Position numbers and translations under genes: made by a program | Notes under the pieces: generated by a model | What the model saw: only the letters and a program-made list of their open reading frames with translations | The model's database searches: none | Told to the model about the DNA's origin: nothing | NCBI GenBank assembly: GCA_001784435.1 | Contig: MFQZ01000001.1 | Location: 220,742 to 284,741, forward strand | DNA: 64,000 nucleotides | Direction of reading: 5' to 3' | Source of the DNA: Candidatus Magasanikbacteria bacterium RIFOXYC2_FULL_42_28 | GTDB lineage: Bacteria > Patescibacteriota > Patescibacteriia > Magasanikbacterales > GWA2-37-8 | Shown here: positions 2,814 to 62,008 of the stretch, in pieces | How the letters are laid out: every line of letters begins with the position of its first letter | How positions within the stretch are numbered: the stretch's first letter is position 1

Positions 2814-4613
2814 TTACATCTCCCCAACCACTTCAATCCCCAAAATATCCAAAGATTTTGTCAAAACCGTCCGAACGGCGCCGGACAATTGCACCCGCGC
2901 GGAAATTAATTCTTTGCTTTCGGCTTGTAGGACACTATGTTTATTGTAAAATTCATTATATGCTTGCGCTAAATCAAAAGTGTATTTAATAACGACGGAT
3001 GGATTATAATTATTGTACGCCTTTTGGATTATTTCGCCGTATTGTGATAGCAGTAATAACAATTTTTTTTCTTCGGGCGAAGTGAGTGGGACAGAGATCC
3101 CGATTTTCATCGGGATGACAGTTCGGTGAGAGGATTTTTTGATAATACTGTTGATGCGGGCGACCGTATACAAAACATACGGACCGGTAAAACCGTCAAA
3201 ACTTGCGGCCGTGGCCGGATCAAAAACAATCACTTTTTCCGCTTCGTGTTTTAAAATTTCAAATTTTATGGCCGCTTGAGTAATGGTATGCGCGGTGGTG
3301 GCGATTTTCTTTTTAGACCAATCAGTGTGACGCTTGGCGGTTTCGCTCAATAATTTTTCATAAACTTCATCGCGTAAATCTTCGTACAGTAAAACATTGC
3401 CCAAACGCGAAGACATCTTGCCAGAAGTTGTACTCACGAGCCCATAACCAATATGTTTAGTTTGGTAATTAAATCCGGCTAATTCTAAAATTTTGAATAA
3501 TTGTTTAAAATAAAAATTCTGCTCGATGCCAGTTAGGTGAACGCTTTGAAAAATTTTCGGAAATGTTTTATTGCGCAATTGCGCGAGGCCAAGATCGCTT
3601 GTTAAATACAATCCTAAACCATTGCTTTTACGCAATAATCCAATATCCAAATTATATTTATTTAGATCCACAATAATCGCTCCACCCTCGCCCACTTGTG
3701 CCACGCCTTTTTTCAATAATTCATCCACTAATTTTTGGCCGGCCTCTTTGACCTCATGTTCATACAAAACTGTTTTGTGTCGCACTCCCAATTCTTTAAA
3801 AATTATATTGAAACCGGCGATGCTCCACTGGCGCGTGGTTTTATACAACGGCCAAATGGTTTTATCGTGTTTTTCAATTTTATTTTGTATGATCGCGATT
3901 TCGTCTTTGGCTTCCGGATGTTCCGCTAAATAGATGCTCGCTTCCGTATAAATAGCCCCGAGCCAACGCTGTTTGTTGGCCGGCGGTTTTTCATTTTTAT
4001 GGAATTTTAATAAACCCCACAAACATTTGGCCACATGCGCGCCAAAATCATTAAGGTAGTTGATGGGGATAATATTAAAACCATTGGCCTCAAAAATTTT
4101 AATCAGGGAATTTCCCAAACAGATATTGCGTAAATGACCAACATGAATTTCTTTGTGGGTATTGTTGGCCGGATATTCCACGAGAATTTTTTTGCCTTTG
4201 CCGAAATTGTTTGTGCCATATTTTTTATTCGCAACCGCTGGGATAATTTCTGACGCGAGCGCGCCGGTGTTTAGGAAAAAATTGACATAAGGGCCAAAGG
4301 CGGCGACACGGCCAACAATTCGATTGTCATCCCGAGCGTTTTTTACTGTCATTCCGAGCGAGCCCTTAAGGGGCGACGAGGAATCTCCACCGGACGAATT
4401 GAACGCTGACAGAGATTTCTCACCCTTCGGGTTCGAAATGACAATGGCGAGCTGTTTAGCTATTTCAACCGGATTCATTTTTAATTCTTTGGCCAAATTA
4501 AAACACGCAAACGCCAAATCCCCCATCTCCGGTTTGGGCGGGGTGGTTAAATCAATTTCGCCGGTAACCCCGGCAACGCGTAAAATTTTTATGATTTCGG
4601 ATTTGATGTCCAT
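2814..4613 (-). CDS. argS: Arginyl-tRNA synthetase carrying two in-frame repeat-element insertions.
   Basis: HIGH motif HVGHLRN, an MSSRLG KMSKS-like motif, and class I ArgRS architecture. Insert regions translate to ...GGDSSSPLKGSLGMT... and ...MKIGISVPLTSPEE.... Confidence 0.9.
   Translation of the reverse strand: MDIKSEIIKILRVAGVTGEIDLTTPPKPEMGDLAFACFNLAKELKMNPVEIAKQLAIVISNPKGEKSLSAFNSSGGDSSSPLKGSLGMTVKNARDDNRIVGRVAAFGPYVNFFLNTGALASEIIPAVANKKYGTNNFGKGKKILVEYPANNTHKEIHVGHLRNICLGNSLIKIFEANGFNIIPINYLNDFGAHVAKCLWGLLKFHKNEKPPANKQRWLGAIYTEASIYLAEHPEAKDEIAIIQNKIEKHDKTIWPLYKTTRQWSIAGFNIIFKELGVRHKTVLYEHEVKEAGQKLVDELLKKGVAQVGEGGAIIVDLNKYNLDIGLLRKSNGLGLYLTSDLGLAQLRNKTFPKIFQSVHLTGIEQNFYFKQLFKILELAGFNYQTKHIGYGLVSTTSGKMSSRLGNVLLYEDLRDEVYEKLLSETAKRHTDWSKKKIATTAHTITQAAIKFEILKHEAEKVIVFDPATAASFDGFTGPYVLYTVARINSIIKKSSHRTVIPMKIGISVPLTSPEEKKLLLLLSQYGEIIQKAYNNYNPSVVIKYTFDLAQAYNEFYNKHSVLQAESKELISARVQLSGAVRTVLTKSLDILGIEVVGEM
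3089..3122. repeat. Family A hairpin repeat (GGACAGAGATCCCGATTTTCATCGGGATGACAG) inside the argS coding region.
   Basis: The same roughly 33-bp element recurs at 18541, 25648, 35034 and 45601. Here the argS reading frame stays open through it. Confidence 0.85.
4325..4446. repeat. Family B long palindromic element (TGTCATYCCGAGCG...GGAATCTCC...GAGATTTCTC...CGAAATGACA) inserted in frame in argS.
   Basis: Near-identical copies lie at 44797-44890 (uvrA) and 59562-59660 (queA). Shorter copies lie at 10472, 21188, 38109, 42174, 45084 and 61937. Confidence 0.85.
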
Positions 4614-4706
4614 ACTATTGACTTATATATTGTATATGGTATTATATAATTATCACTATGTTAAAGACCCCTATACGGTTCCGTCCGTATCGGGGGCTTT
4701 TTCTTT

Positions 4707-5195
4707 TTAGGGGTAATTTAACCTATTTTTTTGAGCATCTAAATATACCAACGGAATATTTAATTTTCTAAGTAAAAATGAACATTTATTGCTGGGTGCT
4801 ATTAGTGAACGAAAAACATTTTTTTCTTTAAAAAATTTCACTAACCCGGCGTAATCACCATCACTAGTTACCAGAACCGCTTGATTAAATTGTTTTTCAA
4901 AATAATCAACTACTGCTTTTAATACTAAATCAGCATCGCAATTTCCTTTAACTTTTCCTTCACTGTTACAAGTTGTTTCCTTAAAAACCAATGTGAAGCC
5001 GGCTTCTTGTAAAAAAGTATAAAGATCTTTATTTTTTGGCACTAAACCAATAAAAAGGTAAGCGCGCTCCACTGAATATTTTTCTTTAAGCCAAATTCTA
5101 AAACGTTTATAATCTAACCTCCACCCTAAATCAGCTACACCTTTGTGAAGATTGGCGCCATCAATATAAGCAAAATTATTCTCTTTCTTTATCAT
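4707..5195 (-). CDS. NYN-domain ribonuclease (YacP/Rae1-like) embedded in the aaRS operon.
   Basis: It begins AYIDGANL and contains ...LVTSDGDYAGLV, which are NYN/PIN-like acidic motifs. Its start overlaps the tyrS stop (ATGA). Confidence 0.65.
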   Translation of the reverse strand: MIKKENNFAYIDGANLHKGVADLGWRLDYKRFRIWLKEKYSVERAYLFIGLVPKNKDLYTFLQEAGFTLVFKETTCNSEGKVKGNCDADLVLKAVVDYFEKQFNQAVLVTSDGDYAGLVKFFKEKNVFRSLIAPSNKCSFLLRKLNIPLVYLDAQKNRLNYP

Positions 5196-6383: not shown

Positions 6384-9119
6384 TTACTTCAAATTACTTA
6401 ATTGCTCTTTTAGTTTAGACAATTTTTGCTCGGTCTCGGCCAATTTTTGGGTTTCTTTTTCAACGACGGCCGGTGGGGCGTTATTGACAAATTCGGCGTT
6501 GGCCAATTTATTTTTCATAACTGTCACAAATTTTTCCGCGGCTTCAACTTCTTTGGTCAAACGCGCGGTTTCTTTTTCAATGTCAACAGCGCCGGATAAA
6601 TCTAAATAAATTTCCATATCACCGCACACCAGCGCCACAGCGTTTTCCGGTTTGACGGCCTTGGTCTCAATGGTTAGTTTTTCTAGACGCGCGAGGCCGG
6701 TGATAATAGCGCTATTTTCGGTTAACAATTTTTCTTTAGCGCCGGCACTGATTATCGCGTCAATTTTTTTGTTTGGTTCAATTTTATTGTCGGCGCGAGC
6801 GGAACGGATGGTGGTGATGATAAGTTGTATGGTATTAAAATCGTTAAGGGATTCCTCCACTACGGTCGGAATGACAAGGTGTGGCCACGATTCTACCATT
6901 AACATTCTATCGATGCCGAACATCTCACTCCAAATTTGTTCAGTAACAAACGGCATAAATGGATGCCACAATTTAAGTAATGTTTGCAAAATATACTGTA
7001 AAATCTCTTCTTTGTCACCCTCTATTTTCGCGATTTCTAAATACCAATCAGCCAATTCACTCCAAGTAAAATCGCGCAATTTTTCACCGGCCGCAGAAAA
7101 TTGAAAATTTTCAATATTCTCGCTTACATCTTTAACGGTAGCATCTAAACGCGACAAAATCCATTTGTCAGCTAATGTCAAATTTTGAATTTTTAATTGT
7201 AATTTTGAATTTTGATTTTTAATTTTTGAATTCGCGATAATAAATCGCGCCATATTCCACAATTTATTTGTAAAATTCCGGAAGCCGGCGATTTTTTCTT
7301 CGGATAATCTAGTGTCATTACCGGGGGTATTTCCAAGTAGTAATGATAAACGTGTAGCATCAGCGCCATACTTAGCAATTGAATCCAACGGATCAATTAC
7401 ATTACCAAGCGACTTACTCATTTTGCGCCCTTGCTCATCGCGCACCAGTCCGTGCATATATACTTTTTCAAACGGAATATCACCCAAAGTATAAGTAGTC
7501 ATGAGTACCATGCGCGCCACCCAGAAAAATAAAATATCATAACCGGTTTCCAACACGGAAGTTGGATGAAAAGTTTGTAAATCAACTGTTTTCTCTGGCC
7601 ATCCCAAAGTAGAAAACGTCCACAAACCCGAAGAAAACCAGGTATCCAACGTGTCAGGATCTTGGTGCAAATCGCCACCATCAGTTTGGTTCCCACAATA
7701 CGGACATACCGCTGGCTCGTCAATACTAACGATGGGATTTTCAGAAACTCCCGGCCCAACTTTTTCGGACACCTCTTGACAGGTGCCGTGGTACCACACC
7801 GGAATCTGATGACCATACCAAATCTGGCGCGAAATACACCAATCGCGCAAATTATCTATCCAGCTAAAATACGTTTTATTAAATCTTTCAGGAATAATTT
7901 CTATCTGCCCACTTGCGACCGCTTCAGACATTAACTTCTTTAAAGTCACTTTTTGACCGGCTTTAATATTTTTCAGTTTTGAATTAACAATTGAAAATTC
8001 TTTATTAACATCAATAAACCACTGCTTAGATGGCAACGGCTCAACCGCTGTACCACAACGATAACAGACGGACAAATTATGTATATAATTTTCATCCACT
8101 CTCTCAAGCAATCCCTTATCTGCTAAAATTTTAACGATCTCTTCCCGACTTGCCTGCGCGTTCTTACCGACAAAATCTCCCGCCGCATCCGTAAAATTGC
8201 CGTCTTCATCAATGATTTGAACAACATCTAAATTGTATTTTTTTGCCAATTCATAATCTTCAAAACTATGCGCCGGAGTAATAGTCATCGCACCCGTACC
8301 AAATTTAGGATCAGAGGCCTGGTCGGCGATAACTTTAGCTATAATTTTGCCACCGATCCAATCCATTTCAAATTTTGTGCCTTGCAATTTTTTGTAACGC
8401 TCATCATCTGGGTGGACGACAATAACCTTATCTAAAAATTTCGTTTCCGGACGCGCCGTGCCAATAATTACCGGACCGTATTTAAAATAATAAAATTTTG
8501 TTTTTTGTTCCTTGTATTCCACCTCATCATCCGCCAAAGTGGAGTGGCACCTCGGGCACCAATTTACAATTCTGTATCCACGATAAATCAAACCGTCGTC
8601 ATACATTTTTTTAAAAACCGTGCGCACTGCTAAATTTCGCGGTTCGTCCAAAGTAAACGCCTCACGACTCCAATCTAACGACGAACCCATTTTTTTACAT
8701 TGATTTACAATCGTATCGTGCGACGCCTGCGCAAATTTATTAACTTCGTCTAAAAATTTTTCACGCCCTAATTCTTTTTTTGGATCCTTAATTCCTTTTT
8801 CAATCAATAATTTTTCTACTTTTGTTTGAGTCGCGATTGCCGCGTGATCCGTCCCAGGCAACCACAAAGTTTTATCACCTTTCATGCGATGATATCGAAT
8901 CATCAAATCCTCTATTGCAAGCATCATGGCATGACCAATGTGAAGTGTGCCAGTTACATTTGGCGGGGGTAAAACTATTGTAAACGGTTTGGCATTTGCA
9001 TCTGTTCCACCTTTCTCAACACATACATCCGGATTAAAAAATCCGCTCTCTTCCCAGCGTTTATAAATCGCATCCTCGTAATTTTGGGGCTCGTAGGCCT
9101 TGGGTAGTTCTTTATTCAT
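6384..9119 (-). CDS. valS: Valyl-tRNA synthetase.
   Basis: PPPNVTGTLHIGHA, KMSKSLGN, and a long C-terminal coiled coil, in 911 aa. It contains an in-frame AT-rich repeat insertion at about 7178-7232. Confidence 0.92.
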   Translation of the reverse strand: MNKELPKAYEPQNYEDAIYKRWEESGFFNPDVCVEKGGTDANAKPFTIVLPPPNVTGTLHIGHAMMLAIEDLMIRYHRMKGDKTLWLPGTDHAAIATQTKVEKLLIEKGIKDPKKELGREKFLDEVNKFAQASHDTIVNQCKKMGSSLDWSREAFTLDEPRNLAVRTVFKKMYDDGLIYRGYRIVNWCPRCHSTLADDEVEYKEQKTKFYYFKYGPVIIGTARPETKFLDKVIVVHPDDERYKKLQGTKFEMDWIGGKIIAKVIADQASDPKFGTGAMTITPAHSFEDYELAKKYNLDVVQIIDEDGNFTDAAGDFVGKNAQASREEIVKILADKGLLERVDENYIHNLSVCYRCGTAVEPLPSKQWFIDVNKEFSIVNSKLKNIKAGQKVTLKKLMSEAVASGQIEIIPERFNKTYFSWIDNLRDWCISRQIWYGHQIPVWYHGTCQEVSEKVGPGVSENPIVSIDEPAVCPYCGNQTDGGDLHQDPDTLDTWFSSGLWTFSTLGWPEKTVDLQTFHPTSVLETGYDILFFWVARMVLMTTYTLGDIPFEKVYMHGLVRDEQGRKMSKSLGNVIDPLDSIAKYGADATRLSLLLGNTPGNDTRLSEEKIAGFRNFTNKLWNMARFIIANSKIKNQNSKLQLKIQNLTLADKWILSRLDATVKDVSENIENFQFSAAGEKLRDFTWSELADWYLEIAKIEGDKEEILQYILQTLLKLWHPFMPFVTEQIWSEMFGIDRMLMVESWPHLVIPTVVEESLNDFNTIQLIITTIRSARADNKIEPNKKIDAIISAGAKEKLLTENSAIITGLARLEKLTIETKAVKPENAVALVCGDMEIYLDLSGAVDIEKETARLTKEVEAAEKFVTVMKNKLANAEFVNNAPPAVVEKETQKLAETEQKLSKLKEQLSNLK
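7178..7232. repeat. AT-rich AATTTTGAATTTT-type repeat inserted in frame in valS.
   Basis: CAAATTTTGAATTTTTAATTGTAATTTTGAATTTTGATTTTTAATTTTTGAATT translates to KIKNQNSKLQLKIQNL. The same motif family occurs in intergenic repeats at 13741, 36590, 55325 and 58478. Confidence 0.6.
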
Positions 9120-9216
9120 AGTATTATTAGTGCTGATATTTTATACCAAAACTAAGAAAAAGGCAAGAAAATGGCTTAATTTTGACAAATTTGCCCCAAA
9201 AATGGCTTACATACTA

Positions 9217-9245
9217 TTGACAAATATTGGAATAATTGGTAAGAT
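9217..9245 (+). promoter_or_regulatory. Sigma70-like promoter for the DHH-family gene.
   Basis: TTGACA (9217-9222), a 17-bp spacer, then TAAGAT (9240-9245). Confidence 0.45.
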
Positions 9246-9309
9246 TACCCGTTATTTCACACTGAAAGATTGCCGCGCCCTTTGGGCTCGCAATGACATT
9301 AACACCGAT

Positions 9310-10452
9310 ATGGCTTTGACCGAAATTGAACAATTTAAACAGCTCGTTAGCGACAGCAAACATATTTTAATTGCCCTGCCGGCGCAAGCGGAAACGGACG
9401 CAACTGCGAGTGCTTTGGCTCTGCAATTATTTTTGACCGCTTCCCACAAGCAAGTTGACATTGTGTCGGCTGATTTTGTCATGCCAAAAAATTTAAAATT
9501 TTTAACCGGCGTGGAAAAAATTAAACCGGAATTGGAACATTTACAAAAATTTATTATTAAAGTGGATGTGTCCAAAGCAAAGATTGACTCCATCAGTTAT
9601 GATATCAAAGATAGTTGGCTTTCCATTTATTTAACCCCTCGCTCCGGCACCGTGGGCGCCTCGGATTTACGCACGGCTCAAACTACTTACCGCTATGATT
9701 TTGTAATTACTCTGGGCGCGCCCGACTTAGCGAGTTTGGGCGAGGTGTTTGCCAACAACACCGATTTATTTTATCGTTTGCCGATTATTAACATCGACAC
9801 GAACGCGGGTAACGAACGATTTGGAAAAATCAACTTCGTGGATTTGAGCGCCGCCGGCGTGGCCGAAATGCTTTTTAAATTATTACAACAAATTAATGAA
9901 CCGCAAATCACGGCCGAAATCGCGACCGCGCTTTTAACCGGCATTACCGCCGCGACGCACAGTTTTAAATCACCACATGTTTCGCCGTTGTCTTTAAAAC
10001 ACGCGAGCACGCTCGTGTCTATGGGCGCGGATCGGGAAAAAATTATCACTCATTTATACCGCACCAAAACTTTATCCGCGCTGAAAATGTGGGGGCAGGC
10101 CTTGGCGCATTTGAAATTTAATCCCGAATTAAAATTGGCCTCGGTGGTAATTACCCGCGATGATTTCACCCGTGCCGGCGCGCGCGCTGAAGAGTTGGCT
10201 GGTCTCGCTGAAGAATTAATTGGCAGTGCTCCCGAAGCGGAATTGACATTGTTAATGTATGAAGATCCGACTGATGGGGTAGTCAACGGCTTGCTTCACG
10301 CTAATTCTAAATATGATGCCAAACAATTGACCGCGGCCTTTGGAAGTGAAGGCAATAAAAAGCAGGCGCGGTTTATTTTGACCGGGGTGGATTTGGTGGG
10401 GGCGGAGGAGAAAGTGGTTGAGCAGCTGAAAAATTTAAATTCTAAATCTTAA
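9310..10452 (+). CDS. DHH/DHHA1-family (NrnA-like) phosphoesterase homolog with degenerate catalytic motifs.
   Basis: The overall layout resembles NrnA, but the DHH motif reads IDTNAGNERFG and motif I reads AETDATAS rather than PDGDALGS. The listed ORF starts at 9100 and overlaps valS. MALTEIEQFK at 9310 is the more plausible start. Confidence 0.5.
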   Translation: MALTEIEQFKQLVSDSKHILIALPAQAETDATASALALQLFLTASHKQVDIVSADFVMPKNLKFLTGVEKIKPELEHLQKFIIKVDVSKAKIDSISYDIKDSWLSIYLTPRSGTVGASDLRTAQTTYRYDFVITLGAPDLASLGEVFANNTDLFYRLPIINIDTNAGNERFGKINFVDLSAAGVAEMLFKLLQQINEPQITAEIATALLTGITAATHSFKSPHVSPLSLKHASTLVSMGADREKIITHLYRTKTLSALKMWGQALAHLKFNPELKLASVVITRDDFTRAGARAEELAGLAEELIGSAPEAELTLLMYEDPTDGVVNGLLHANSKYDAKQLTAAFGSEGNKKQARFILTGVDLVGAEEKVVEQLKNLNSKS

Positions 10453-10471
10453 GCAAATTAAAAAACTAACT

Positions 10472-10506
10472 TGTCATTCCGACGACGAAGGAGGAATCTC
10501 TGTCCA
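10472..10506. repeat. Short intergenic copy of the family B element (TGTCATTCCGACGACGAAGGAGGAATCTCTGTCC).
   Basis: Sequence identity to the intragenic copies. Confidence 0.8.
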
Positions 10507-10527
10507 TTAGTAATCCGAAAAATTAAT

Positions 10528-12138: not shown

Positions 12139-13731
12139 TTATATCAACGGCACACCGGTCATTTCAGACGGCTTCTCCACTTCCATCAATTTCAAAACTG
12201 TCGGCGCGATATCAGCCAACACCCCGACCGGATGCATTAAGGACAAATCCCCTTCGGGCGGATCACCGGCCGGGCCGGCTTGGCCTTGAAAATCTTTGCC
12301 GATTATTAAAAGTGGCACCGGATTAGTGGTGTGCTCTTTATCAATTTCGCCGGTTTGTAAATTGATGGTTTCTTCGGCATTGCCATGATCGGCGGTCATA
12401 AGCATTACTCCGCCGGCGGCCAAAGTGTGTTCCACAATTTCACCCAACGCCTTGTCGGCGGCTTCACACCCCTTGATGGTCGCGTTCACGTCGCCGGTGT
12501 GCCCGACCATATCGGGGTTGGCCAAATTAACAATTACCAAATCATATTTTCCGCTATCAATCGCTTTGGACGCTTCTTTGGCCACGCCCGCGGCTGACAT
12601 CTGGGGCTCTTCGTTATAACTGGACACTTGCGGAGAAGGGATAAGCGAACGCTCTTCGCCCGGAAACGGATCTTCCACCGCGCCATTTAAAAAGTAAGTA
12701 ACATGCGCGTATTTTTCCGTTTCGGCCACATGAAATTGGGTCTTGCTTGCCTTACTAACTGTTTCAGCTAAACTGTTAATCACCACGACCGGTGGAAACG
12801 CTACACCAGACACAGGTAAATCTTTTTCATATTCAGTCATGGATACAAACCGCAAATCCCGCAAATATGGCCGATCAAATTTATCAAAACCGGGCAGGAC
12901 AAACGCCTTGGTTAATTGCCGACCGCGGTCAGGCCGAAAATTAAAAAATATCGCGCTATCCCCTTCTTTAAAAATTCCAATCGGTTCGCCTTTTTTGGTG
13001 ATGACTGTAGGAATGAATTCCTCATCATAAACTTTTTTCGCGTAAGAATCAGTAACGGCTTTAAGCGCGTCTTCGGCCGTTTGTTTGCTTTCGCCCAACG
13101 CCATCGCGCGATAGGCCTTTTCCACTCTGTCCCAACGGTTATCGCGGTCCATCGCATAATACCGGCCACAGACAGACGCGATTTTCCCAACTTTTAAACT
13201 ATTCATTTTATCTTGTAACCGACGCACAAAATCCGCGCCGGAATTATAAGGCGCATCGCGGCCGTCTAAAATTACGTGAATAAAAACATGATTTTTTAAA
13301 GTGGTGGAAATTTTTTGCTGACGGCATAAATCCAACAGCGCGTAGAGGTGGCTTTCGGCCGCGTGAATATTGCCGGCGGACAGTAATCCAATTAAATGCA
13401 AATCAGATTTTTTTTCTTTAACTTGATTTAAGGCGCGCGTAAAAGCGGTGTTGGTAAAAAAAGTGCCATCGGCAATGGTTTGGTTAATGCGCGGACAGGA
13501 TTGATAATACACTCGGCCAGCACCGATATTTAAATGCCCTACTTCGGAATTGCCCATTTCGCCAAACATAAGACCAACCTCATTGCCAGACGCAAACAAA
13601 GTCATCGCCGGATATTCTTTAATATACTTATTAAAGTTTTTCATCTGGGCGCGCGTAACCGCGTTGCCTTCTCCAGGTGGAGCAACGCCGAGGCCGTCGA
13701 AAATTGTGAGGACTACGGGTTTATAGGACAT
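12139..13731 (-). CDS. gpmI: 2,3-bisphosphoglycerate-independent phosphoglycerate mutase.
   Basis: VLTIFDGLGV...GNSEVGHLNIGAGRV (catalytic Ser region), in 530 aa. Confidence 0.9.
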   Translation of the reverse strand: MSYKPVVLTIFDGLGVAPPGEGNAVTRAQMKNFNKYIKEYPAMTLFASGNEVGLMFGEMGNSEVGHLNIGAGRVYYQSCPRINQTIADGTFFTNTAFTRALNQVKEKKSDLHLIGLLSAGNIHAAESHLYALLDLCRQQKISTTLKNHVFIHVILDGRDAPYNSGADFVRRLQDKMNSLKVGKIASVCGRYYAMDRDNRWDRVEKAYRAMALGESKQTAEDALKAVTDSYAKKVYDEEFIPTVITKKGEPIGIFKEGDSAIFFNFRPDRGRQLTKAFVLPGFDKFDRPYLRDLRFVSMTEYEKDLPVSGVAFPPVVVINSLAETVSKASKTQFHVAETEKYAHVTYFLNGAVEDPFPGEERSLIPSPQVSSYNEEPQMSAAGVAKEASKAIDSGKYDLVIVNLANPDMVGHTGDVNATIKGCEAADKALGEIVEHTLAAGGVMLMTADHGNAEETINLQTGEIDKEHTTNPVPLLIIGKDFQGQAGPAGDPPEGDLSLMHPVGVLADIAPTVLKLMEVEKPSEMTGVPLI

Positions 13732-13740: not shown

Positions 13741-13860
13741 AAATTCTAAACTCTAAATACTAAATTCTAAACAATTTCAAAATTCAAAATTCAAAAAGCT
13801 TAAAATTTAAATTTGGAACATTAGGGTTTATTTAGAATTTAGGGTTTAGTATTTAGAGCT
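13741..13860. repeat. AT-rich palindromic intergenic repeat (TCTAAACTCTAAATACTAAA ... TTTAGGGTTTAGTATTTAGAGC).
   Basis: A long inverted repeat sits between the two iPGM genes. The same motif family is at 36590-36717 and 58478-58527. Confidence 0.75.
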
Positions 13861-15428
13861 TAATACAATGGTCTTCCCGTCATCTCCTTCGCTTTCGCAA
13901 TATTCATCATTTTTAAAAGTGTCGGTGCCACATCAGCCAAAATGCCGTTTCTTAGGCGCTTCGCTTTTCCACCAATTAAAATACATGGCACCGGACTAAA
14001 AGTATGTTCATTCATTTTTTCTTTGGTTTTGTGATTGATCATTACTTCGGCATTGCCATGATCGGCGACGATTAACGCCTGGCCGTGAATTTCCTTCAAA
14101 GTATTAATAATTTTTTTAACGGCCACGTCCATAGTCGCAATCCCTTTTTTGGCCGCGGCTAAATTGCCAGTGTGGCCCAACATGTCGGCGTTGGGGAAAT
14201 TTACGCAGATAAAATTATATTTCCCGGTTTTAAAATAATGGGAAATTTTTTGCGCCAATTGGGGCGCGTGCATTTGGGGTTTTTGCGCGTAAGAATGAAT
14301 TTTGTCCGAATGAATTAATTCGCGCTGTTCACCATTTAAGGCGTCAGGGTACCCGCCGTTGATAAAGTAAGTAACATGCGCGTATTTTTCCGTTTCCGAA
14401 ATATATAATTGTTTATAATGACCATCGATTACCGCCGGCAAACAATTTTTAATGTCTTCGGAGGGGAACGCTGTCAAAACATTGGGCAAGTCCGGTCCAA
14501 AATCCGTCATGGCCACAAAGCGAATATCTTTCGGAACATGGCAACGCGTGAATGACCCGGGATTTTTTTTATTAAAATCGGGCTGGACAAAGGATTTGGT
14601 AATTTGACGAGCGCGATCACTCCGAGCGTTGAAAAAGAAAATCACGTCATTGTCTTGGACTTTTGTCACTGGATGACCATGTTCGGTAATTACCGTCGGG
14701 GTAATATATTCATCGGTTTCGCCCCGGTTATACGCCTGAGCTATTGCGTCTTCGGCCGACACGGCTGTGTTGCCAACACAACCCACCAGCGCGTCGTGCG
14801 CTAATTTTATCCGTTCCCAAATTTTATTCCGATCCATGGCATAAAATCGCCCCATCACCGTGGCAATTTTTTCTGCGCCTTGCATTTTAGCGCGCAATGC
14901 AACTAAATATTTAGCGGCGGCATGCGGAGGAGAATCGCGGCCATCGGTAAATAAATGTAAATAAACTTTTTTCTGTTCTTCTCGGCGGAATAATTCCAAT
15001 AAAGCGTAAAGGTGTTCAGGATACGAATGCGCGCTCGCCCCGTCGGTCAACATCCCCATCACATGCACGGCGCTGTTATATTTTTTAGCGTGATACAACG
15101 CCTGTTTAAAAGCGGTATTTTTAAAGAATGTTCCATCGTGAATGGCTTCAGAAATTATTACTAAATCCTGTTTGACAATCCGACCGGCGCCGATGTTTAA
15201 ATGCCCGGCTTCGGAATTTCCTACTTGCTTCGGAAATAAACCGGCATATTGGCCGTAAGTTTTTAAAGTGGAATGAGGATATTTTTTAAAATATGAAAAG
15301 AGATTGGGCGCAGTCGCGGATGTAATCGCGTTGCCCGGATCGTCTTTTTTTCCAAACCCAAAACCATCCAAGATTATGAGGGCGGTTGATGGACGGATTA
15401 TTTTAGATTTAGAGTTAATTTTAATCAT
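13860..15428 (-). CDS. Second iPGM-family paralog (cofactor-independent phosphoglycerate mutase or a related phosphomutase).
   Basis: ALIILDGFGFG...GNSEAGHLNIGAGRIV. The listed ORF extends to 15494 by translating the upstream repeat. MIKINSKS at 15428 is the more likely start. Confidence 0.8.
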   Translation of the reverse strand: MIKINSKSKIIRPSTALIILDGFGFGKKDDPGNAITSATAPNLFSYFKKYPHSTLKTYGQYAGLFPKQVGNSEAGHLNIGAGRIVKQDLVIISEAIHDGTFFKNTAFKQALYHAKKYNSAVHVMGMLTDGASAHSYPEHLYALLELFRREEQKKVYLHLFTDGRDSPPHAAAKYLVALRAKMQGAEKIATVMGRFYAMDRNKIWERIKLAHDALVGCVGNTAVSAEDAIAQAYNRGETDEYITPTVITEHGHPVTKVQDNDVIFFFNARSDRARQITKSFVQPDFNKKNPGSFTRCHVPKDIRFVAMTDFGPDLPNVLTAFPSEDIKNCLPAVIDGHYKQLYISETEKYAHVTYFINGGYPDALNGEQRELIHSDKIHSYAQKPQMHAPQLAQKISHYFKTGKYNFICVNFPNADMLGHTGNLAAAKKGIATMDVAVKKIINTLKEIHGQALIVADHGNAEVMINHKTKEKMNEHTFSPVPCILIGGKAKRLRNGILADVAPTLLKMMNIAKAKEMTGRPLY

Positions 15429-15429
15429 A

Positions 15430-15470
15430 CTATTTGACATTGGAAATTGGAAATTTGACATTTCGCACAC
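15430..15470. repeat. Family E repeat (TTTGACATTGGAAATTGGAAATTTGACATTTCGC).
   Basis: Copies at 18850-18900, 45133-45180, 53080-53140 and 61081-61200, all at gene 5' ends or inside uvrA. Confidence 0.8.
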
Positions 15471-15471
15471 C

Positions 15472-16716
15472 TTATCTTCCCAACTCCAATTCAATTTCCA
15501 TCAACCGATTATACTTTTCCGTGCGCTCGGAACGCGAAATTGATGTTTTAATAAATTCAGCGTTGACGGCTACTGCTAAATCAGCAATAAAAGTATCGGA
15601 CGTCTCGCCACCGCGATGCGAAATAGTAACCTGATAGCCACTGTTTTTAACCAGCTGAATTGCCACCATAGTTTCGGTTACCGTGCCGATTTGATTCGGT
15701 TTGATAAGTACCGCGTTGGCAATTTTTTCTTTAACACCACGCGTGATCCGCTCGACATTAGTCACAAACAAATCATCGCCAATAAGTGAAACTTTACCAC
15801 CCAATTCTTTAGTTAAAATTTTCCAATTTTCCCAATCATCTTCGGCCAAACCGTCTTCAATGGAAAATAAGGGATATTTTTTCACCCATTGCTTAAAGGT
15901 CTCAATCATTTTCGCCGCGCGCCACGGTTGTTTTTTACTGATGAAATAATAATTGCCCTTGCTATACAATTCCGAAGCGGCCACATCTACCCCCAAAAAA
16001 ACCTGCTTACCCGGTTCCCAACCGGCGGATTTAATCGCTTCAATCATAATTTGCAAAGCGCGTTCGTTGCTGGACAATTCAGCCGCATAGCCACCCTCAT
16101 CACCCACGGAAGTATGATAACCCTTGCGCGCGAGCAAAGTGCCAAGAGCATGAAAAATTTGCGAGCCCATGCGCACGCGTTCACTGAAAATTTTATTGCG
16201 GGGAATAATTAAAAATTCCTGAATTGTCAACCCGCTGTCCGCGTGCCGGCCACCTTCAATTACCATCATCATGGGTACGGGCAAACGATATTCTTTTTCT
16301 TTTATGCCATAAACTTTGCGCAAATAGATATAAAGCGGCAAACGAGCGGCAGACGCACCCGCGCGCGCGAGCGCGAGTGAAACCGCCAAAGTAGCGTTGG
16401 CCCCTAGATTGGATTTATTTTTAGTGCCATCAAGTGTAATTAACATTTGGTCCAAAGCCGGCAAATCTTCCACTTCAAAACCGACTAATTTTTTAGCAAT
16501 TATGGTATTAACATTTTTCACCGCGCGCAATACTCCTTGCCCGCCATAGCGCTTGCCCCCATCGCGCAATTCCCGCGCTTCATGAACACCGGTCGAAACG
16601 CCGGATGGAACTTTGGCCACGGCCATAAGCCCATTTTCCAAAATAACTTTCGCCTCCACGGTCGGATTACCGCGTGAGTCCAAAATTTCGCGAGCGGTGA
16701 TTTGTTTGATTTTCAT
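15472..16716 (-). CDS. eno: Enolase.
   Basis: MKIKQITAREILDSRGNPTVEAKV N-terminus and full enolase architecture. Confidence 0.95.
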   Translation of the reverse strand: MKIKQITAREILDSRGNPTVEAKVILENGLMAVAKVPSGVSTGVHEARELRDGGKRYGGQGVLRAVKNVNTIIAKKLVGFEVEDLPALDQMLITLDGTKNKSNLGANATLAVSLALARAGASAARLPLYIYLRKVYGIKEKEYRLPVPMMMVIEGGRHADSGLTIQEFLIIPRNKIFSERVRMGSQIFHALGTLLARKGYHTSVGDEGGYAAELSSNERALQIMIEAIKSAGWEPGKQVFLGVDVAASELYSKGNYYFISKKQPWRAAKMIETFKQWVKKYPLFSIEDGLAEDDWENWKILTKELGGKVSLIGDDLFVTNVERITRGVKEKIANAVLIKPNQIGTVTETMVAIQLVKNSGYQVTISHRGGETSDTFIADLAVAVNAEFIKTSISRSERTEKYNRLMEIELELGR

Positions 16717-25624: not shown

Positions 25625-25647
25625 AGATAATAATTAGAAATAAGATA

Positions 25648-35022: not shown

Positions 35023-35033
35023 ATGTTTAAATT

Positions 35034-45589: not shown

Positions 45590-45600
45590 ACATTACAATA

Positions 45601-46362: not shown

Positions 46363-46387
46363 TTCTATAAAAATCTAACAACCAAAA

Positions 46388-47429: not shown

Positions 47430-47445
47430 ATTAAAGAAATCAAAT

Positions 47446-47886: not shown

Positions 47887-47889
47887 CCC

Positions 47890-48363: not shown

Positions 48364-48367
48364 AATT

Positions 48368-49084: not shown

Positions 49085-49266
49085 GTATATTTAGTTTTTT
49101 TGCGGCAACAAAAGAAAAACAAAAAACCGGCGAATTCGCCAGATTCTTTTTGCACGCTTCTGAAAAAGAAAAAAAGCAAGTATTCAAAGACGCGGCCAGA
49201 CGAGCAAACGAAGACCAACGCGCACTCGTTAAAAACGTCAAAGAACTTCAACATAAGGCCACCTGA
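49081..49266 (+). CDS. Small K/E-rich helical protein translationally coupled to the zeta-like kinase. Candidate partner or antitoxin.
   Basis: Start overlaps the kinase stop (ATGA). 61 aa. A terminator hairpin immediately downstream overlaps its stop codon. Confidence 0.45.
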   Translation: MSIFSFFAATKEKQKTGEFARFFLHASEKEKKQVFKDAARRANEDQRALVKNVKELQHKAT

Positions 49267-49283
49267 CAAGGTGGCCTTTCTTG
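49255..49283 (+). terminator. Rho-independent terminator.
   Basis: AAGGCCACC-TGACAA-GGTGGCCTT followed by TCTTGAT. Confidence 0.75.
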
Positions 49284-49309
49284 ATATTATATACGGATAA
49301 AAAAATAAC

Positions 49310-49693
49310 ATGCTTTTCAAAACCGTCAATCACGTCGCCATTATCGCCTCCGATTTGGAAATTTCCAGAAATTTTTACATTGGCAAACTTGGTTTTAAAT
49401 TAATTAAAACAATTGACCGGTCAGAAAGACAATCAACGATTTTATATTTAGACGCGGGAAACATTATAATTGAATTAATGTCTTTCCCCAATCCCCCAAA
49501 ACGCCCGGCCTGGCCAGAAGCTTGCGGTTTGCGACACTTAGCATTTGATGTGGAAAATTTTGATGAAATGATAACGAAATTAAACGAGCTTGGTATCACG
49601 ACCGAACAACCTCGCGTTGACGCGCGCACGGGAAAAAGATTGACTTTTTTTAATGATCCGGATAATTTACCGCTGGAAATTTGTGAGATGTAA
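49310..49693 (+). CDS. VOC-family protein (glyoxalase/bleomycin-resistance fold).
   Basis: VNHVAIIASDLEISRNFYIGKLGFKLI N-terminal beta-alpha-beta-beta-beta module. 127 aa. Confidence 0.7.
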   Translation: MLFKTVNHVAIIASDLEISRNFYIGKLGFKLIKTIDRSERQSTILYLDAGNIIIELMSFPNPPKRPAWPEACGLRHLAFDVENFDEMITKLNELGITTEQPRVDARTGKRLTFFNDPDNLPLEICEM

Positions 49694-49697
49694 TTTT

Positions 49698-50330
49698 ATG
49701 AAAAAACTTAAATGGATATTACCAATATTAATCTTCACGACTCTCGCTATCATTTGGCTTGCCGATTTTAAAATTGAACACGCTACCAATGATTTAACAT
49801 ATAATGACGCCACCGAAATCCCCCACAACAAAGTCGGCCTACTTTTAGGAACCACAAAATACGCCCCATCCGGACAATTAAACGGCTACTTTGTTTACCG
49901 CATCCAAGCGGCCGTTGACTTGTTTAATAACCAAAAAATTGATAACATTGTGATTAGTGGCGATAACGGCACCAAAAAATATAACGAGCCGGAGGATATG
50001 AAAAATGAATTAGTGGCGCGTGGCATTCCGGAGAACAAAATATATTTGGACTACGCCGGTTTTCGGACTTATGATTCGGTCGTGCGATTAAATAAAATTT
50101 TTGGCCAAGATAAATTTACGATTATATCCCAAGAATTTCACAACCGGCGCGCAATATATATCGCCCAAGCCAAAAATTTAGAAGCCGTCGGGTATAACGC
50201 GAAAGATATCAATACTTACCGCGGATTGCGGACAAAATTGCGCGAAAAATTAGCGCGCGTCAAGGTATTTATTGATCTACTGACAAATAAACAACCAAAA
50301 TTTTTAGGCGAAGAAATTGAAATAAAATAA
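49698..50330 (+). CDS. SanA/YdcF-family (DUF218) membrane-anchored protein.
   Basis: N-terminal TM anchor, then NIVISGDNGTKKYNEPEDMKNELVARGIPENKIYLDYAGFRTYDSVVR, the DUF218 core. Confidence 0.65.
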   Translation: MKKLKWILPILIFTTLAIIWLADFKIEHATNDLTYNDATEIPHNKVGLLLGTTKYAPSGQLNGYFVYRIQAAVDLFNNQKIDNIVISGDNGTKKYNEPEDMKNELVARGIPENKIYLDYAGFRTYDSVVRLNKIFGQDKFTIISQEFHNRRAIYIAQAKNLEAVGYNAKDINTYRGLRTKLREKLARVKVFIDLLTNKQPKFLGEEIEIK

Positions 50331-50335
50331 TTAAA

Positions 50336-50372
50336 ACAAAAAAATCAGCTGACACACGCGCTGATTTTTTAA
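50336..50372. terminator. Bidirectional rho-independent terminator between the convergent SanA and pgsA-like genes.
   Basis: AAAAAAATCAGC-TGACACACGC-GCTGATTTTTTAA. Confidence 0.75.
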
Positions 50373-50380
50373 TATATTTT

Positions 50381-51004
50381 TTAGATCCCGTAAGTAAACA
50401 AGCTAATCAACGCGAAACCAATCGCGAACCCAAACAGCCAAAAAGCGACCGCAAATAACAATGGGAAATCCAACAAAAGCGCGAGCAAAACCAAAAATGT
50501 CGCCACCACTTGTAGCCACATTTTTATTTTCCCCCAAACATTCGCCATCCGCGTAATGTGAAAATATTGATGCGAAATATACGCGGCGATAATAAACAAA
50601 ATTTCTACGACCAAAATTGTCAAACCCAACCAATCGGGAAAATAACGAAACACCAAAAGCAAAACCATTGAACCGATCAATAGTTTATCGGCCAAAGGAT
50701 CAAATAATTTGCCAAAATCGGTAATTTGACCACGCATCCGCGCCATTGAGCCATCCATGGCATCGGTAAAAGCGGTTAAAATAAACAGAGTCGCGCCCCA
50801 AGCGTAATGATTGAACAACACCAACAAAAATACCGGCGGAGTCATAATTATGCGCAAAACCGTTAAGCGGTTGGGGGTGACGCTCGGTGGCAGATAACGC
50901 AATAAATACCGATACAAAAAAACATCGTGAACATGGCGTTCAGTTGATTTTTGATAAACAAACAGATCGTCGTGATGATTTTTGAAATTATCAATCCATT
51001 CCAT
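50381..51004 (-). CDS. pgsA: CDP-alcohol phosphatidyltransferase (PgsA-like).
   Basis: DAMDGSMARMRGQITDFGKLFDPLADK matches the D-G-x2-A-R-x8-G-x3-D-x3-D motif. Multi-TM protein. Confidence 0.75.
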   Translation of the reverse strand: MEWIDNFKNHHDDLFVYQKSTERHVHDVFLYRYLLRYLPPSVTPNRLTVLRIIMTPPVFLLVLFNHYAWGATLFILTAFTDAMDGSMARMRGQITDFGKLFDPLADKLLIGSMVLLLVFRYFPDWLGLTILVVEILFIIAAYISHQYFHITRMANVWGKIKMWLQVVATFLVLLALLLDFPLLFAVAFWLFGFAIGFALISLFTYGI

Positions 51005-55295: not shown

Positions 55296-57578
<2,283 letters not shown>

Positions 57579-58997: not shown

Positions 58998-60215
58998 TTA
59001 AATTATTAACATTGCATCCCCAAAACTATAAAAACGATATTTGGCTTTAATCGCTTCGGCGTAACATTTTAAAACAAACTCTCTGTCCCCGGCAAACGCG
59101 GACACAAGCATCAACAGTGTGGACTCGGGCAAATGAAAATTGGTGATAAGCGCGTCCACCACTTGAAATTTAAAACCGGGGGTAATAAAAATATTAATAT
59201 CGCCATCGTACGGCGTGACTTGTCCGTCAAATTTTTGCGCCACTCCTTCCAACGTCCGCACCGTTGTCGTGCCAACCGCTACCACGCGTCGGCCACTGGC
59301 CTTGGCCGCGTTAATTAACCCGGCATTTTTATCAGTAATTTCTACCCACTCGGCGTGCATTTTATGATCTTCAACTTTTTCGGTTTTAACTGGTAAAAAT
59401 GTCCCTAACCCAACATGCAAAGTAACTTCCGCAAACTCCACACCCTGTTTTTTCAATCGCTCAATCAATTCTTCAGTAAAGTGAAATCCGGCTGTCGGCG
59501 CGGCCACTGAACCTTCATATTTGGCATACACGGTCTGATACCGCTCTGCAACATACTCACTTGTCATCCCGAGCGAGGACTCCCGACTTAGTCGGGACGA
59601 GGGATCTCCACCAACAAATGATTGGGATAGAGATTCCTCCTTCGCCGTCGGAATGACAGAAATGTACGGTGGTGTCGGCACTTCGCCATATTTATTCGCC
59701 TTGGCGCGCACAATCGCGTCCGAATCATTAAACTGTAAATCCACCGTGCCATCATCATTTTTAAACATCACCTCGGCAAAAAAATCATCTGCAAAAACCA
59801 CCCTCATCCCCAAGCGCAATTTTTTTCCCGGCTTAGCGAGCGCCCGCCACACCCCCGGATTTTCCATCGGCCGCGTTAAAAATATTTCGACTTTCGGCGC
59901 GTTAAAAATTACATCAGTACACTCAAATTTCCCCGTCCTTTTCAAGGAGGGGGCGAGGGGGTGGTTCGGCACACCCGCGACCTCCTCATCCAACATTACC
60001 GTCCCGCGCAAGCGCGCCTTAAAAACTTTCGTATTATTCCACACCACCAAATCCCCAGCACGCAAATACTTACAAATTTCCGCAAACGAATTTTCATGCT
60101 GAAAAATCTTGCGTTCGCGATCAACCAACATTAACCGCGAAGAATCGCGTGGCGTTGCCGGCGTTTGCGCAATTAGTTCTTTTGGTAAATTATAATTAAA
60201 ATCCGAGGTGAGCAT
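58998..60215 (-). CDS. queA: S-adenosylmethionine:tRNA ribosyltransferase-isomerase with two in-frame repeat insertions.
   Basis: MLTSDFNYNLPKELIAQTPATPRDSSRLML N-terminus. About 60 aa longer than typical QueA. Inserts translate to GGDPSSRLSRESSLGMT and PTPPLPLKRTGKFECT. Confidence 0.88.
   Translation of the reverse strand: MLTSDFNYNLPKELIAQTPATPRDSSRLMLVDRERKIFQHENSFAEICKYLRAGDLVVWNNTKVFKARLRGTVMLDEEVAGVPNHPLAPSLKRTGKFECTDVIFNAPKVEIFLTRPMENPGVWRALAKPGKKLRLGMRVVFADDFFAEVMFKNDDGTVDLQFNDSDAIVRAKANKYGEVPTPPYISVIPTAKEESLSQSFVGGDPSSRLSRESSLGMTSEYVAERYQTVYAKYEGSVAAPTAGFHFTEELIERLKKQGVEFAEVTLHVGLGTFLPVKTEKVEDHKMHAEWVEITDKNAGLINAAKASGRRVVAVGTTTVRTLEGVAQKFDGQVTPYDGDINIFITPGFKFQVVDALITNFHLPESTLLMLVSAFAGDREFVLKCYAEAIKAKYRFYSFGDAMLII
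59562..59660. repeat. Full-length family B element in frame in queA.
   Basis: TTGTCATCCCGAGCGAGGACTCCCGACTTAGTCGGGACGAGGGATCTCCACC...GGGATAGAGATTCCTCCTTCGCCGTCGGAATGACAGA. Confidence 0.85.
59931..59970. repeat. Family C G-rich element (CCCCGTCCTTTTCAAGGAGGGGGCGAGGGGGTGGTT) in frame in queA.
   Basis: Near-identical to 45647-45686. Confidence 0.8.
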
Positions 60216-60218
60216 ATT

Positions 60219-61080: not shown

Positions 61081-61200
61081 TGCCAAATTTCCAATTTCAA
61101 ATTTCAAATCAATGTCAAAATCAAAATATCAAATTTGACCTTTGGCATTTGAAATTTGGATTTGATTTGACATTGGAAATTTGGATTTTGAAATTTAATT
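61081..61200. repeat. Long AT-rich inverted repeat built from family E motifs (CCAAATTTCCAATTTCAAATTTCAAATC ... GATTTGACATTGGAAATTTGGATTTTGAAATTT).
   Basis: Two arms with extensive complementarity, located between mltG and the nucleotidyltransferase gene. Confidence 0.75.
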
Positions 61201-61231: not shown

Positions 61232-61924
61232 TTATACCAGAAATTCCCTCTCTGCCTTCTGATATTTCTCCAACGTATCCGTCGGAAACCACTGCCCATT
61301 ATGCCGATGCGCGAACATTTTCCCAAGCTTGGCGACTTTTTCAAAACAATCACGCTCAATTGACGAAACCCCAACCGGCAAAATGTCCAACACATCCGGC
61401 TCCATAATATACCCGCCGGCATTATTTAAATTTGACGGCGCTTTATCCGGTGTTGGTTTTTCCACAAATTCCAAAATTTTATCTCCTTCTAAGCGCGCGA
61501 TACCATACTGAGTAACGTCTTCAACCGGAAATAAAGACAGGGTCAATTTGGCGTTATTTTTTTTGTGAACTTCAAGCGCCGAAGTCCAATCAAAATCCGC
61601 CAAATTATCCCCGTTAATTGCCAAAAACGTTTCCTTAATTCCTTCAGCCGCTTTTTTCAAAGCCCCACCGGTGCCGAGTGGTTCGCTTTCCACGCAATAA
61701 CTGATTTTCATCCCCCACTTACTCCCATCGCCAAAATAATCTTTAATTTTGTCAGCCATATAACCGATAGACAAAACAATTTTGTCCACGCCATGCTTTT
61801 TAAAATTCAAAATCGCGTGCTCAACAATCGGCTTGCCGTGAATGGGCAAAAGCGGTTTTGGCGTTTCATAGGTTAGAGGGCGTAAACGTGTCCCGAGTCC
61901 TCCGGCCAAAATTATTGCTTTCAT
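61232..61924 (-). CDS. Sugar-phosphate nucleotidyltransferase (RmlA/GlmU-N-like).
   Basis: MKAIILAGGLGTRLRPLTYETPKPLLPI signature. The listed ORF extends to 61942 into the upstream repeat. Confidence 0.8.
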   Translation of the reverse strand: MKAIILAGGLGTRLRPLTYETPKPLLPIHGKPIVEHAILNFKKHGVDKIVLSIGYMADKIKDYFGDGSKWGMKISYCVESEPLGTGGALKKAAEGIKETFLAINGDNLADFDWTSALEVHKKNNAKLTLSLFPVEDVTQYGIARLEGDKILEFVEKPTPDKAPSNLNNAGGYIMEPDVLDILPVGVSSIERDCFEKVAKLGKMFAHRHNGQWFPTDTLEKYQKAEREFLV

Positions 61925-61936
61925 AATTATATCAAT

Positions 61937-62008
61937 TGTCATTGCGAGGAGCCGTAGCGACGCGGCAATCCCAACGTTAGATTGCCACGCTTCGCTCGCA
62001 ATGACAGT
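61937..62008. repeat. Family B variant palindromic element (TGTCATTGCGAGGAGCCGTAGCGACGCGGCAATCCCAACGTTAGATTGCCACGCTTCGCTCGCAATGACAGT).
   Basis: Terminal inverted repeats TGTCATTGCGAG / CTCGCAATGACA. Confidence 0.8.

Follow-up and report, generated by a model that had tools for sequence, protein, structure and literature searches.

Palindromic repeats tagged with CGTC are the closest described relatives of the elements that we report here, short hairpin repeats that recur between and inside the genes of a 64-kb stretch of DNA from Candidatus Magasanikbacteria bacterium RIFOXYC2_FULL_42_28, a member of the candidate phyla radiation (CPR). We call this whole stretch the window, and coordinates refer to it unless another locus is named. 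In the described repetitive extragenic palindromes (REPs), the CGTC tag can be changed to TGTC (or CCTC) and the stem, which starts with AT, has 8-9 bp and a loop of 4-5 nt and is followed by a short unpaired 3' tail with the consensus CCA (Di Nocera et al. 2013, PMC3733652). Inverted dimers predominate, and the repeats have neither a dedicated transposase nor a flanking REP-associated tyrosine transposase (RAYT). Four families, CGTC-1 to CGTC-4, were defined; CGTC-1 corresponds to the Rickettsia palindromic element (RPE) RPE-6 and also to the Neisseria repeat dRS3, and CGTC-4 to RPE-4. In-frame copies were tabulated in R. conorii uvrB, uvrC, dnaE and QueA (amino acids 170-178, WIPWSNHGMT), the IleRS and GlyRS of E. 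litoralis carry in-frame dimers such as VVPAKAGTSLGQSAKTNEIPASAGMT, and REP dimers of the GTAG type occur twice in uvrA of Opitutus terrae and Thioalkalivibrio (PMC3733652).

A second described system connects such repeats with a nuclease. The Neisseria motif NTS (CGTCATTCCCGCGMAVGCGGGAATCYRG), which contains dRS3, is the target of SsnA, a GIY-YIG endonuclease of about 100 amino acids that cuts only single-stranded DNA (ssDNA) (Chenal et al. 2025, PMC11893778). Binding of SsnA requires the palindrome and the C just after it, and cutting requires the 3 nt upstream. The ssnA gene typically has a copy of the motif on either side (NTS-ssnA-NTS), and the SsnA/NTS pair lowers transformation in N. 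meningitidis. Neither Patescibacteria nor intragenic in-frame copies are mentioned in that paper (PMC11893778).

Repeats with the same core are abundant in the window. The half-motif GTCATCCCGA has 17 matches with at most one mismatch, compared with 2.2 expected, and the half-motif TCGGGATCTCTGTC has six matches with at most two mismatches, compared with 0.13 expected. Every copy follows one modular plan, yTGTC-AT-NNN-GA...N'N'N'-AT-C-TCTRTCC, in which the stem consists of an A-T and a T-A pair, three covarying pairs and usually a tandem G·A step with at least one further pair; the loop ranges from 4 to about 45 nt, and the return arm is followed by an invariant ATC and a CTCTRTCC-like tail. 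We built a covariance model (R1) from 50 short-loop units and scanned the whole window with filters off, which gave 21 units (E <= 0.04) and no additional degenerate copies. Adding a unit with a very long loop (35034-35097) and a partial left end (4325-4346) brings the total to 22-23 units at 16 sites, or about one site per 4 kb. All 22 listed units, like all 21 matches of the model, carry the TGTC tag. An earlier note on this DNA had proposed two families, A and B, with at least 14 copies each. The data do not support these numbers, and the two are a single family with a common tag, stem base (AT-NNN) and tail (ATC). The name family A had been given to the short form, such as TGTC-ATCCCGAT-GAAA-ATCGGGAT-CTC, of which the window has 5-6 strict copies (those with 8 bp and a GAAA loop start at 3087, 18540, 25645 and 45600), while family B comprises units with a long loop or two inverted units with their tails facing inward. 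Such tail-to-tail dimers make up six of the 16 sites and are 72-111 bp long, always a multiple of three when the flanking Y and R bases are counted. The sites are the following.

3087-3122 (-), argS site 2: single unit with an 8-bp stem and GAAA loop, in frame, amino acids 498-509 (TVIPMKIGISVP), 2-4 amino acids more than orthologues.
4325-4445, argS site 1: partial left end (4325-4346) and inverted dimer (4345-4394, +; 4405-4445, -), amino acids 57-97, about 33 amino acids added.
6841-6878 (-), valS: single unit, in frame, amino acids 748-758 (LVIPTVVEESL), length-neutral compared with orthologues.
9259-9300 (-), open reading frame (ORF) 9100-10452: weak unit with a TGC stem (E = 0.04), within the long reading of the ORF but probably 5' of its true start (ATG 9310).
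10470-10507 (+), intergenic: single unit directly after the stop of ORF 9100-10452.
18540-18575 (+), pgk on the opposite strand: single unit with an 8-bp stem and GAAA loop, amino acids 90-101 (DRDPDFRRDDS), no lengthening.
21188-21294, intergenic between scpA and aspS: inverted dimer, fold z = -5.9.
25645-25680 (-), intergenic between gap and an ORF of 2732 amino acids: single unit.
35032-35144, intergenic between tsf and rpsB: inverted dimer, loop of the left unit 45 nt.
38108-38145 (+), prmC: single unit, in frame, amino acids 118-129.
42173-42219 (+), uvrC on the opposite strand: single long-loop unit, in frame, amino acids 121-134 (DGDSSSARASLGMT), adjoined by a family-C palindrome at about 42125-42170.
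44796-44890, uvrA site 2: inverted dimer of 93 bp and 31 codons, in frame, amino acids 234-264.
45083-45173 (+), uvrA site 1: single long-loop unit (45083-45131) and a (TTGGAAA)n run (45143-45173), in frame, amino acids about 144-169.
45600-45635 (+), intergenic: single unit, 11 nt 5' of the uvrA start.
59560-59660, queA: inverted dimer of 99 bp and 33 codons, in frame, amino acids 186-218.
61935-62008, intergenic: inverted dimer with TGC stems, 72 bp, its left end covering the first 6-8 nt of a nucleotidyltransferase gene (start codon 61942-61940).

Nine sites are thus in frame inside genes: two each in argS and uvrA and one each in valS, pgk, prmC, uvrC and queA. The core claim of the earlier note, that short palindromic mobile elements resembling RPEs lie in frame within essential genes, holds, as does its observation that both orientations relative to the host gene occur. 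Its list of hosts was right for argS (twice), pgk, prmC, uvrC and uvrA (twice) and also for queA, where the two supposed copies are the two arms of a single dimer; it had overlooked the unit in valS. The shared peptides that it reported are indeed encoded, SSPLKGSLGMT in argS and uvrA and SLGMT in uvrC and queA. The copy placed in gyrB (55338-57578) had to be struck from the list, because the only palindrome in this gene is unrelated. It is a GC-rich imperfect palindrome at 57250-57303 (CGGTGTCTCCCCCTGCCC / GGGTGGGAGCGGACACCG) that is read in frame in the variable C-terminal region of GyrB, and we rejected it as a TGTC unit. Six of the 16 sites lie in the 8% of the window that is non-coding, an excess (p = 9e-4). 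Elements interrupt none of the genes in the window, and the intergenic copies all lie between complete genes.

We then considered the reading frame in a larger set of units. A scan of one genome per species with the pattern TGTCATYCCGAN{6,36}GGRATCTCTRTCC returned at least 106 stretches, and the listed CPR loci together with the window contain 95 intragenic units. Their frames encode the signatures V-I (33 units), N/D-D (28), M-T (22), C-H (6) and L-S (6), and the TGA-containing frame is used by none of the 95. Every intragenic copy is in phase and free of stops. The insert-bearing stretch of UvrA includes VISTTKEKSLSQLPADGDPSSPLKGSLGMT. We infer that the ribosome reads through the inserts, which would form hydrophilic loops: excision at the level of RNA or protein would not impose frame constraints, and known introns or inteins are far larger than these elements.

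Comparison with orthologues, a check that the earlier note had proposed, showed that most copies are insertions. In an alignment of 120 Magasanikbacteria-like UvrA orthologues, both inserts of the window protein (883 amino acids; uvrA, 42938-45589, -) are shared only with a protein that is 93% identical. They are missing from a 77%-identical orthologue (L001, read at the DNA level) and from most of the 120 sequences, which speaks against ancestral, conserved segments. The 'empty' site in L001 (ACTGTGATC...GGATC) was considered as a decayed unit, and the likeness is too weak to call. In another relative, L002, site 2 is occupied by a three-unit composite instead. The sister genome RIFOXYD2_FULL_41_14 (L065) has a uvrA whose product is 84-90% identical and whose flanking DNA is 90% identical to the window. 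It has no insert at site 1, and site 2 is masked by N in the record. At a third position (amino acid ~525), where the window gene is empty, it carries a dimer that is 87% identical to the window site-2 dimer, and from the two sequences we read this difference as recent movement or independent gain. The queA element is missing from a 64%-identical orthologue (L107) and provides 33 amino acids where T. maritima QueA has one residue. The uvrC element is missing from L001 and different in L065, the prmC unit lies within about 21 amino acids that are extra compared with HemK structures, between the N-terminal domain and the SAM-binding motif, and argS site 1 is a clean insert of about 33 amino acids. 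At the sequence level, these comparisons show elements gained, lost or relocated between closely related Magasanikbacteria.

The in-frame copies in UvrA and ArgRS are found at sites that accept extra sequence. UvrA loops at amino acids ~155, ~240 and ~525 have at least 8 extra residues in 23, 28 and 39 of the 120 orthologues, respectively, and peptide signatures of the repeat class are present in about 29% of these inserts compared with about 4% of random 30-amino-acid windows. The loop of ArgRS site 1 is likewise hit repeatedly. The earlier note had suggested mapping the inserts onto structures, and in AlphaFold2 models of UvrA and ArgRS built with deep alignments they do fall in loops of low confidence. 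The UvrA model has a mean pLDDT of 79.9, and its only long segments below 50 are amino acids 146-168 and 238-263; the ArgRS model has a mean pLDDT of 89.7, with amino acids 75-94 as the only segment below 50, and the unit of site 2 lies within loop 496-512. For these two proteins the models thus show the copies in variable loops that are predicted to be poorly ordered.

The hairpin itself is under constraint. For 196 units from the window and the fetched loci, located with only TGTCAT and the ATC-tail as anchors and the stem left free, the stem triplets were fully complementary in 180 (92%), with 7 Watson-Crick variants, whereas shuffling the partners gave a mean of 68 and a maximum of 86 complementary stems. 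In an alignment of 50 sequences (A2), the pair formed by columns 14-22, which was not imposed by the search, covaries as GC (20), CG (11) and AU (10), and the positions between this pair and the outer stem are mostly G·A or A·G. The first pairs in A2 are A-U in 50/50 and U-A in 50/50 sequences, as imposed by the search pattern, and all window units conform to them. Intragenic copies retain perfect stems. When folded as ssDNA, two of the four short units gave the expected 8-bp hairpin with a GAAA loop (z = -3.6), and dimers fold into long hairpins (z = -2.8 to -5.9). Many loops contain GCGAAGC, a classic DNA mini-hairpin of very high stability.

How do the units compare with the described systems? 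They share with the CGTC REPs the (C/T)GTC tag directly before the stem, the A-T and T-A first pairs, the short tail, the inverted dimers without a flanking RAYT, in-frame copies in host genes of one kind (uvrA, uvrB, uvrC, dnaE, aminoacyl-tRNA synthetases and QueA), and the reading frames used, with the peptide types VIP..., ...GMT and ...RND. Like CGTC-1, the short units have an 8-bp stem and a 4-nt loop. In contrast to the published families, most window units have 5 Watson-Crick pairs, a tandem G·A step and loops of 8-45 nt, and the tail is C-TCTRTCC (with the first C invariant) instead of CCA; the host phylum is new and the intragenic share much higher. As with RPEs, unrelated housekeeping genes of a bacterium with a small genome and a host-dependent life contain palindromic repeats in frame, and loops are where these are tolerated. 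The link to RPEs rests on the published equation of RPE-4 and RPE-6 with CGTC-4 and CGTC-1 and on the peptide types; repeats of the RPE-1 type are longer (100-150 bp) and unrelated in sequence. [quoted passage not shown] REPINs differ in their tag, which is GTAG and not TGTC, and are almost always extragenic. On sequence grounds, we therefore assign the window repeats to the CGTC/TGTC REP / Ssn-related-motif (SRM) class, as a divergent long-loop subfamily. Repeats of this kind in frame in repair and aminoacyl-tRNA synthetase genes beyond Rickettsia, and a cognate nuclease family, Ssn, are already known. In agreement with the earlier note, which knew of no such case in CPR genomes, we found no relevant paper in the literature searched for CPR/Patescibacteria repeats, and matches to the repeat sequence itself in papers were primers only. 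The CPR host, the divergent long-loop subfamily, its density and intragenic share, the recurrent hot spots, the length-neutral replacements described below and the ssn-comEC neighborhood are new.

Evidence for a nuclease came from the loci listed in the scan. Before we knew of the Ssn paper, clustering of their ORFs had yielded a small protein family in at least six loci from three phyla, which proved to be a GIY-YIG domain (PF01541, E = 1e-12 to 1e-19) of about 100 amino acids. The gene lies between a (+) and a (-) unit in L011, L057, L087, L093, L104 and L109; in L050 a unit was detected on its 5' side only. It is the only recurrent family between inverted units among the loci listed, in at least six by clustering and at least eight by tblastn. 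The spacing of the catalytic residues (Tyr-Tyr 10-11, Tyr-Glu 57-58) is that of Y6, Y17 and E64 in SsnA. Neither TGTCAT nor ATC varies in A2 or among the window units, and these stretches include the GTC and the C that are needed for cutting and binding by SsnA. The motif-ssn-motif layout in relatives, the single-domain protein with its matching residues and the conserved GTC-AT...AT-C core thus resemble the NTS/SRM system, and a near-canonical NTS (TGTCATTCCCGCGAAAGCGGGAATCCAG) occurs in Magasanikbacteria loci as well. In the sister genome (L109, RIFOXYD2_FULL_41_14) the order is leuS with an in-frame dimer, (+) unit, ssn-like gene, (-) unit and comEC. Within 3001-4858 of this locus, 53 nt separate the ssn-like gene from comEC, which lies downstream on the same strand and has a near-canonical NTS dimer at its 3' end. 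An adjacency of ssn and comEC was not found in the text of the Ssn paper (PMC11893778). Among the best 120 homologues of the sister-genome protein there is no clear orthologue from the window genome. Most of these homologues (P0241-P0360) come from very short contigs of 0.4-3 kb, a fragmentation that would be expected were metagenome assemblies to break at the gene and the repeats around it.

We consider it likely that the units are hairpin elements of the CGTC/TGTC REP class that are recognized, and probably multiplied, by an Ssn-type nuclease and are tolerated in gene loops. A GIY-YIG nuclease of this type would recognize the hairpin in ssDNA and would probably multiply the elements. Copies in essential genes would survive only where frame, length and protein site tolerate them, which would account for the recurrent hot spots, and the inserts would be read as hydrophilic protein loops and not removed. 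Several observations weigh against this explanation. In valS, in pgk and at argS site 2 a single unit stands in for native residues and the protein becomes no longer, an outcome that does not follow from simple insertion. No gaps are needed to align the valS unit with a CPR orthologue or with P. aeruginosa ValRS, nor the pgk unit with F. tularensis PGK, and at the pgk unit the window protein is 9 amino acids shorter than a CPR orthologue. Insertion with a compensating deletion, or replacement of a patch, would explain such length-neutral units. The arm sequences of the window units differ from those of NTS, the published SRM pattern HGTCWYN(0-2)YYVSBRHN(0-5)WNVSBRGN(0-2)RNCYNB has no match on either strand of the window, and the 64 kb contain no ssn gene. 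What is published for Ssn is cleavage of ssDNA and a reduction of transformation, and not transposition of repeats (PMC11893778). Single long-loop units fold poorly alone (z ~ 0), the stem test and the intragenic counts use loci retrieved with a pattern of this same family, and the case for translation is made from open frames.

Other explanations share part of this evidence. The hairpins might be maintained by the host as dense Ssn targets at which ssDNA that enters through ComEC, incoming or self, is fragmented, so that recombination is tuned as by NTS/SsnA in Neisseria, a role that is compatible with nuclease-driven multiplication and that we regard as possible but rather unlikely. The sister-genome arrangement, with units around an ssn-like gene beside comEC, the effect of SsnA/NTS on transformation in N. 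meningitidis, the perfect stems of intragenic copies and the density of sites would fit such a role. However, the ssn-comEC adjacency was seen in one genome lineage only (L109 and L110 have the same arrangement), the presence of units varies between close relatives at positions that are not conserved, which fits turnover better, and the intergenic over-representation is that expected for tolerated parasites. A further step would tie the Ssn/hairpin pair to ComEC-dependent uptake and let the units spread by Ssn-dependent replacement of short single-strand patches. We find this doubtful, although it would produce single units that replace about 11 codons without a change in length and loops that are hit repeatedly; if it were true, protein loops of a minimal genome would be a by-product of a system that polices ssDNA. 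It is improbable that a tyrosine transposase of the IS200/IS605 type (a RAYT), or a DDE transposase with the terminal inverted repeats as its target, moves the repeats as REPINs or MITEs and that the GIY-YIG link is incidental. The inverted dimers with their TGTCATYCCGA...TCGGRATGACA ends do look like such elements and fold as long hairpins, and transposition is not among the activities described for Ssn. On the other hand, the units have no GTAG tag, the CGTC class was reported without flanking RAYTs (PMC3733652), and single units are as common as dimers. No direct repeat that could be a target-site duplication surrounds any window dimer. Pfam and NCBIfam searches of 50 window ORFs revealed no transposase, the only nuclease match being the GIY-YIG domain of UvrC, and neither the window ORFs scanned nor the unit-flanked ORFs of the matches listed include a Y1 transposase or RAYT; among the loci listed, the small GIY-YIG protein is the sole family that recurs between inverted units.

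The remaining two alternatives fare worse. Stable hairpins could in principle serve as processing signals, and the segments would then be removed after transcription or translation like introns or inteins. With 30-110 nt they are far below the size of group I/II introns or inteins, the Rfam scan of the window gave no families at gathering thresholds, identical units also lie in intergenic DNA, and the avoidance of the TGA frame by stop-free, in-phase copies is something that excision would not require; we consider removal very improbable. Scarcely credible is the reading of the segments as ancestral protein sequence, look-alike low-complexity linkers or assembly artefacts of metagenome bins. 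The three length-neutral units could pass for native loops, but nucleotide repeats with covarying stems recur across unrelated genes and intergenic DNA and are missing from most orthologues. The same family is present in independent assemblies from Rifle, Lake Baikal, New Zealand groundwater and other sources, and the UvrA protein cluster has 4 member sequences from 3 contigs and several sources.

CPR genomes, with about 1 Mb, are regarded as highly streamlined. Nevertheless, this one tolerates a mobile hairpin every ~4 kb, including copies in UvrA, UvrC, three aminoacyl-tRNA synthetases, PGK, PrmC and QueA. Both the pattern and the repeat class are those of the textbook Rickettsia case, here in an unrelated host-dependent lineage, and this likeness supports the idea that, in general, selfish hairpins become fixed in frame where populations are small or life is symbiotic. 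The case joins three literatures, on RPEs, CGTC REPs and the Ssn nuclease. In practice, the repeats inflate and distort alignments of CPR proteins, create spurious ORFs and break assemblies. The length-neutral replacements could reveal how such repeats move, and cutting of the units by the CPR GIY-YIG protein and a functional role of the position beside comEC are further leads.

Most of the stretches listed in the scan are from Patescibacteria. Other record titles among the matches listed are Bacteroidota, Clostridia, Melainabacteria, Chloroflexota, Chlorobiota, Verrucomicrobiota, Acidobacteriota, Kiritimatiellia, Bowmanella dokdonensis and a Methanomethylophilaceae archaeon. Paired (+)/(-) units predominate in these matches. 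Units within ORFs of at least 300 amino acids amount to 82/245 (33%) in the CPR loci and 4/79 (5%) elsewhere among the matches listed (Fisher p = 6e-8). The family is thus broad, and heavy in-frame residence is a Magasanikbacteria feature. We discarded a spread to Proteobacteria, since the 21 contigs titled 'uncultured Gammaproteobacteria' are mostly syntenic with, and 60-96% identical at the amino acid level to, Magasanikbacteria/Patescibacteria loci; judged by these matches, their organism names appear to be wrong. The contigs are L003, L012, L014, L020-L022, L033, L038, L041, L045, L046, L053, L058, L070, L076, L078, L088, L091, L093, L096 and L108. Of these, 20 are third-party (TPA) assemblies; L014 is an ordinary metagenome-assembled genome with a weak match of 28%, which does not support reassignment. 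The near-canonical NTS noted above, TGTCATTCCCGCGAAAGCGGGAATCCAG, constitutes a sister family that is one base off the Neisseria NTS consensus and ends in CCAG in CPR loci. In Magasanikbacteria loci it lies partly within long ORFs (L013 3229-3530, L064 6944-7016, L086 7566-7633 and L096 1431-1455).

Two further kinds of repeat occur in the window. A second palindromic family, ACCACCCCCTCGCCCC(C)TCCTTGAAAAGGAGGGG, is present in queA (~59925-59975), in uvrC (~42125-42170) and in an intergenic region (45646-45705), and is read in frame as NHPLAPSLKRTG in queA and SHLTLALPSGRG in uvrC. The sister-genome uvrC has an extra copy near the N-terminus, which the window gene does not have. The heptamer (TTGGAAA)n, which is in frame within uvrA at 45143-45173 (read NFQFPIS), has more copies at ~15439, 18854, 53103 and 61087-61195, just 5' of several genes, and may be promoter-associated.

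The window is 92% coding, and its UvrA is 100% identical to the protein on record for RIFOXYC2_FULL_42_28, a CPR genome bin. Its housekeeping genes are argS, tyrS, valS, two genes for cofactor-independent phosphoglycerate mutase (iPGM), eno, pgk, scpAB, aspS, gap, tsf, rpsB, prfA, prmC, uvrC, uvrA, uvrB, rodA/ftsW, gyrB, nusG and queA, and ARAGORN found no tRNA genes in it. The two iPGM genes are tandem paralogues (12139-13731 and 13860-15494) with DNA stretches that are 71-84% identical, and the ORF of 2732 amino acids (25750-33948) contains GC-rich direct repeats. Between uvrA and uvrB lies a block of low GC content (45835-51004, +; 0.36-0.38) with genes for two GNAT acetyltransferases, LysE, an AAA kinase-like protein, a zeta toxin, a glyoxalase and a DUF218 protein. 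In the relatives L001 and L002 uvrA and uvrB are at most ~1 kb apart, and the block looks like an inserted island.

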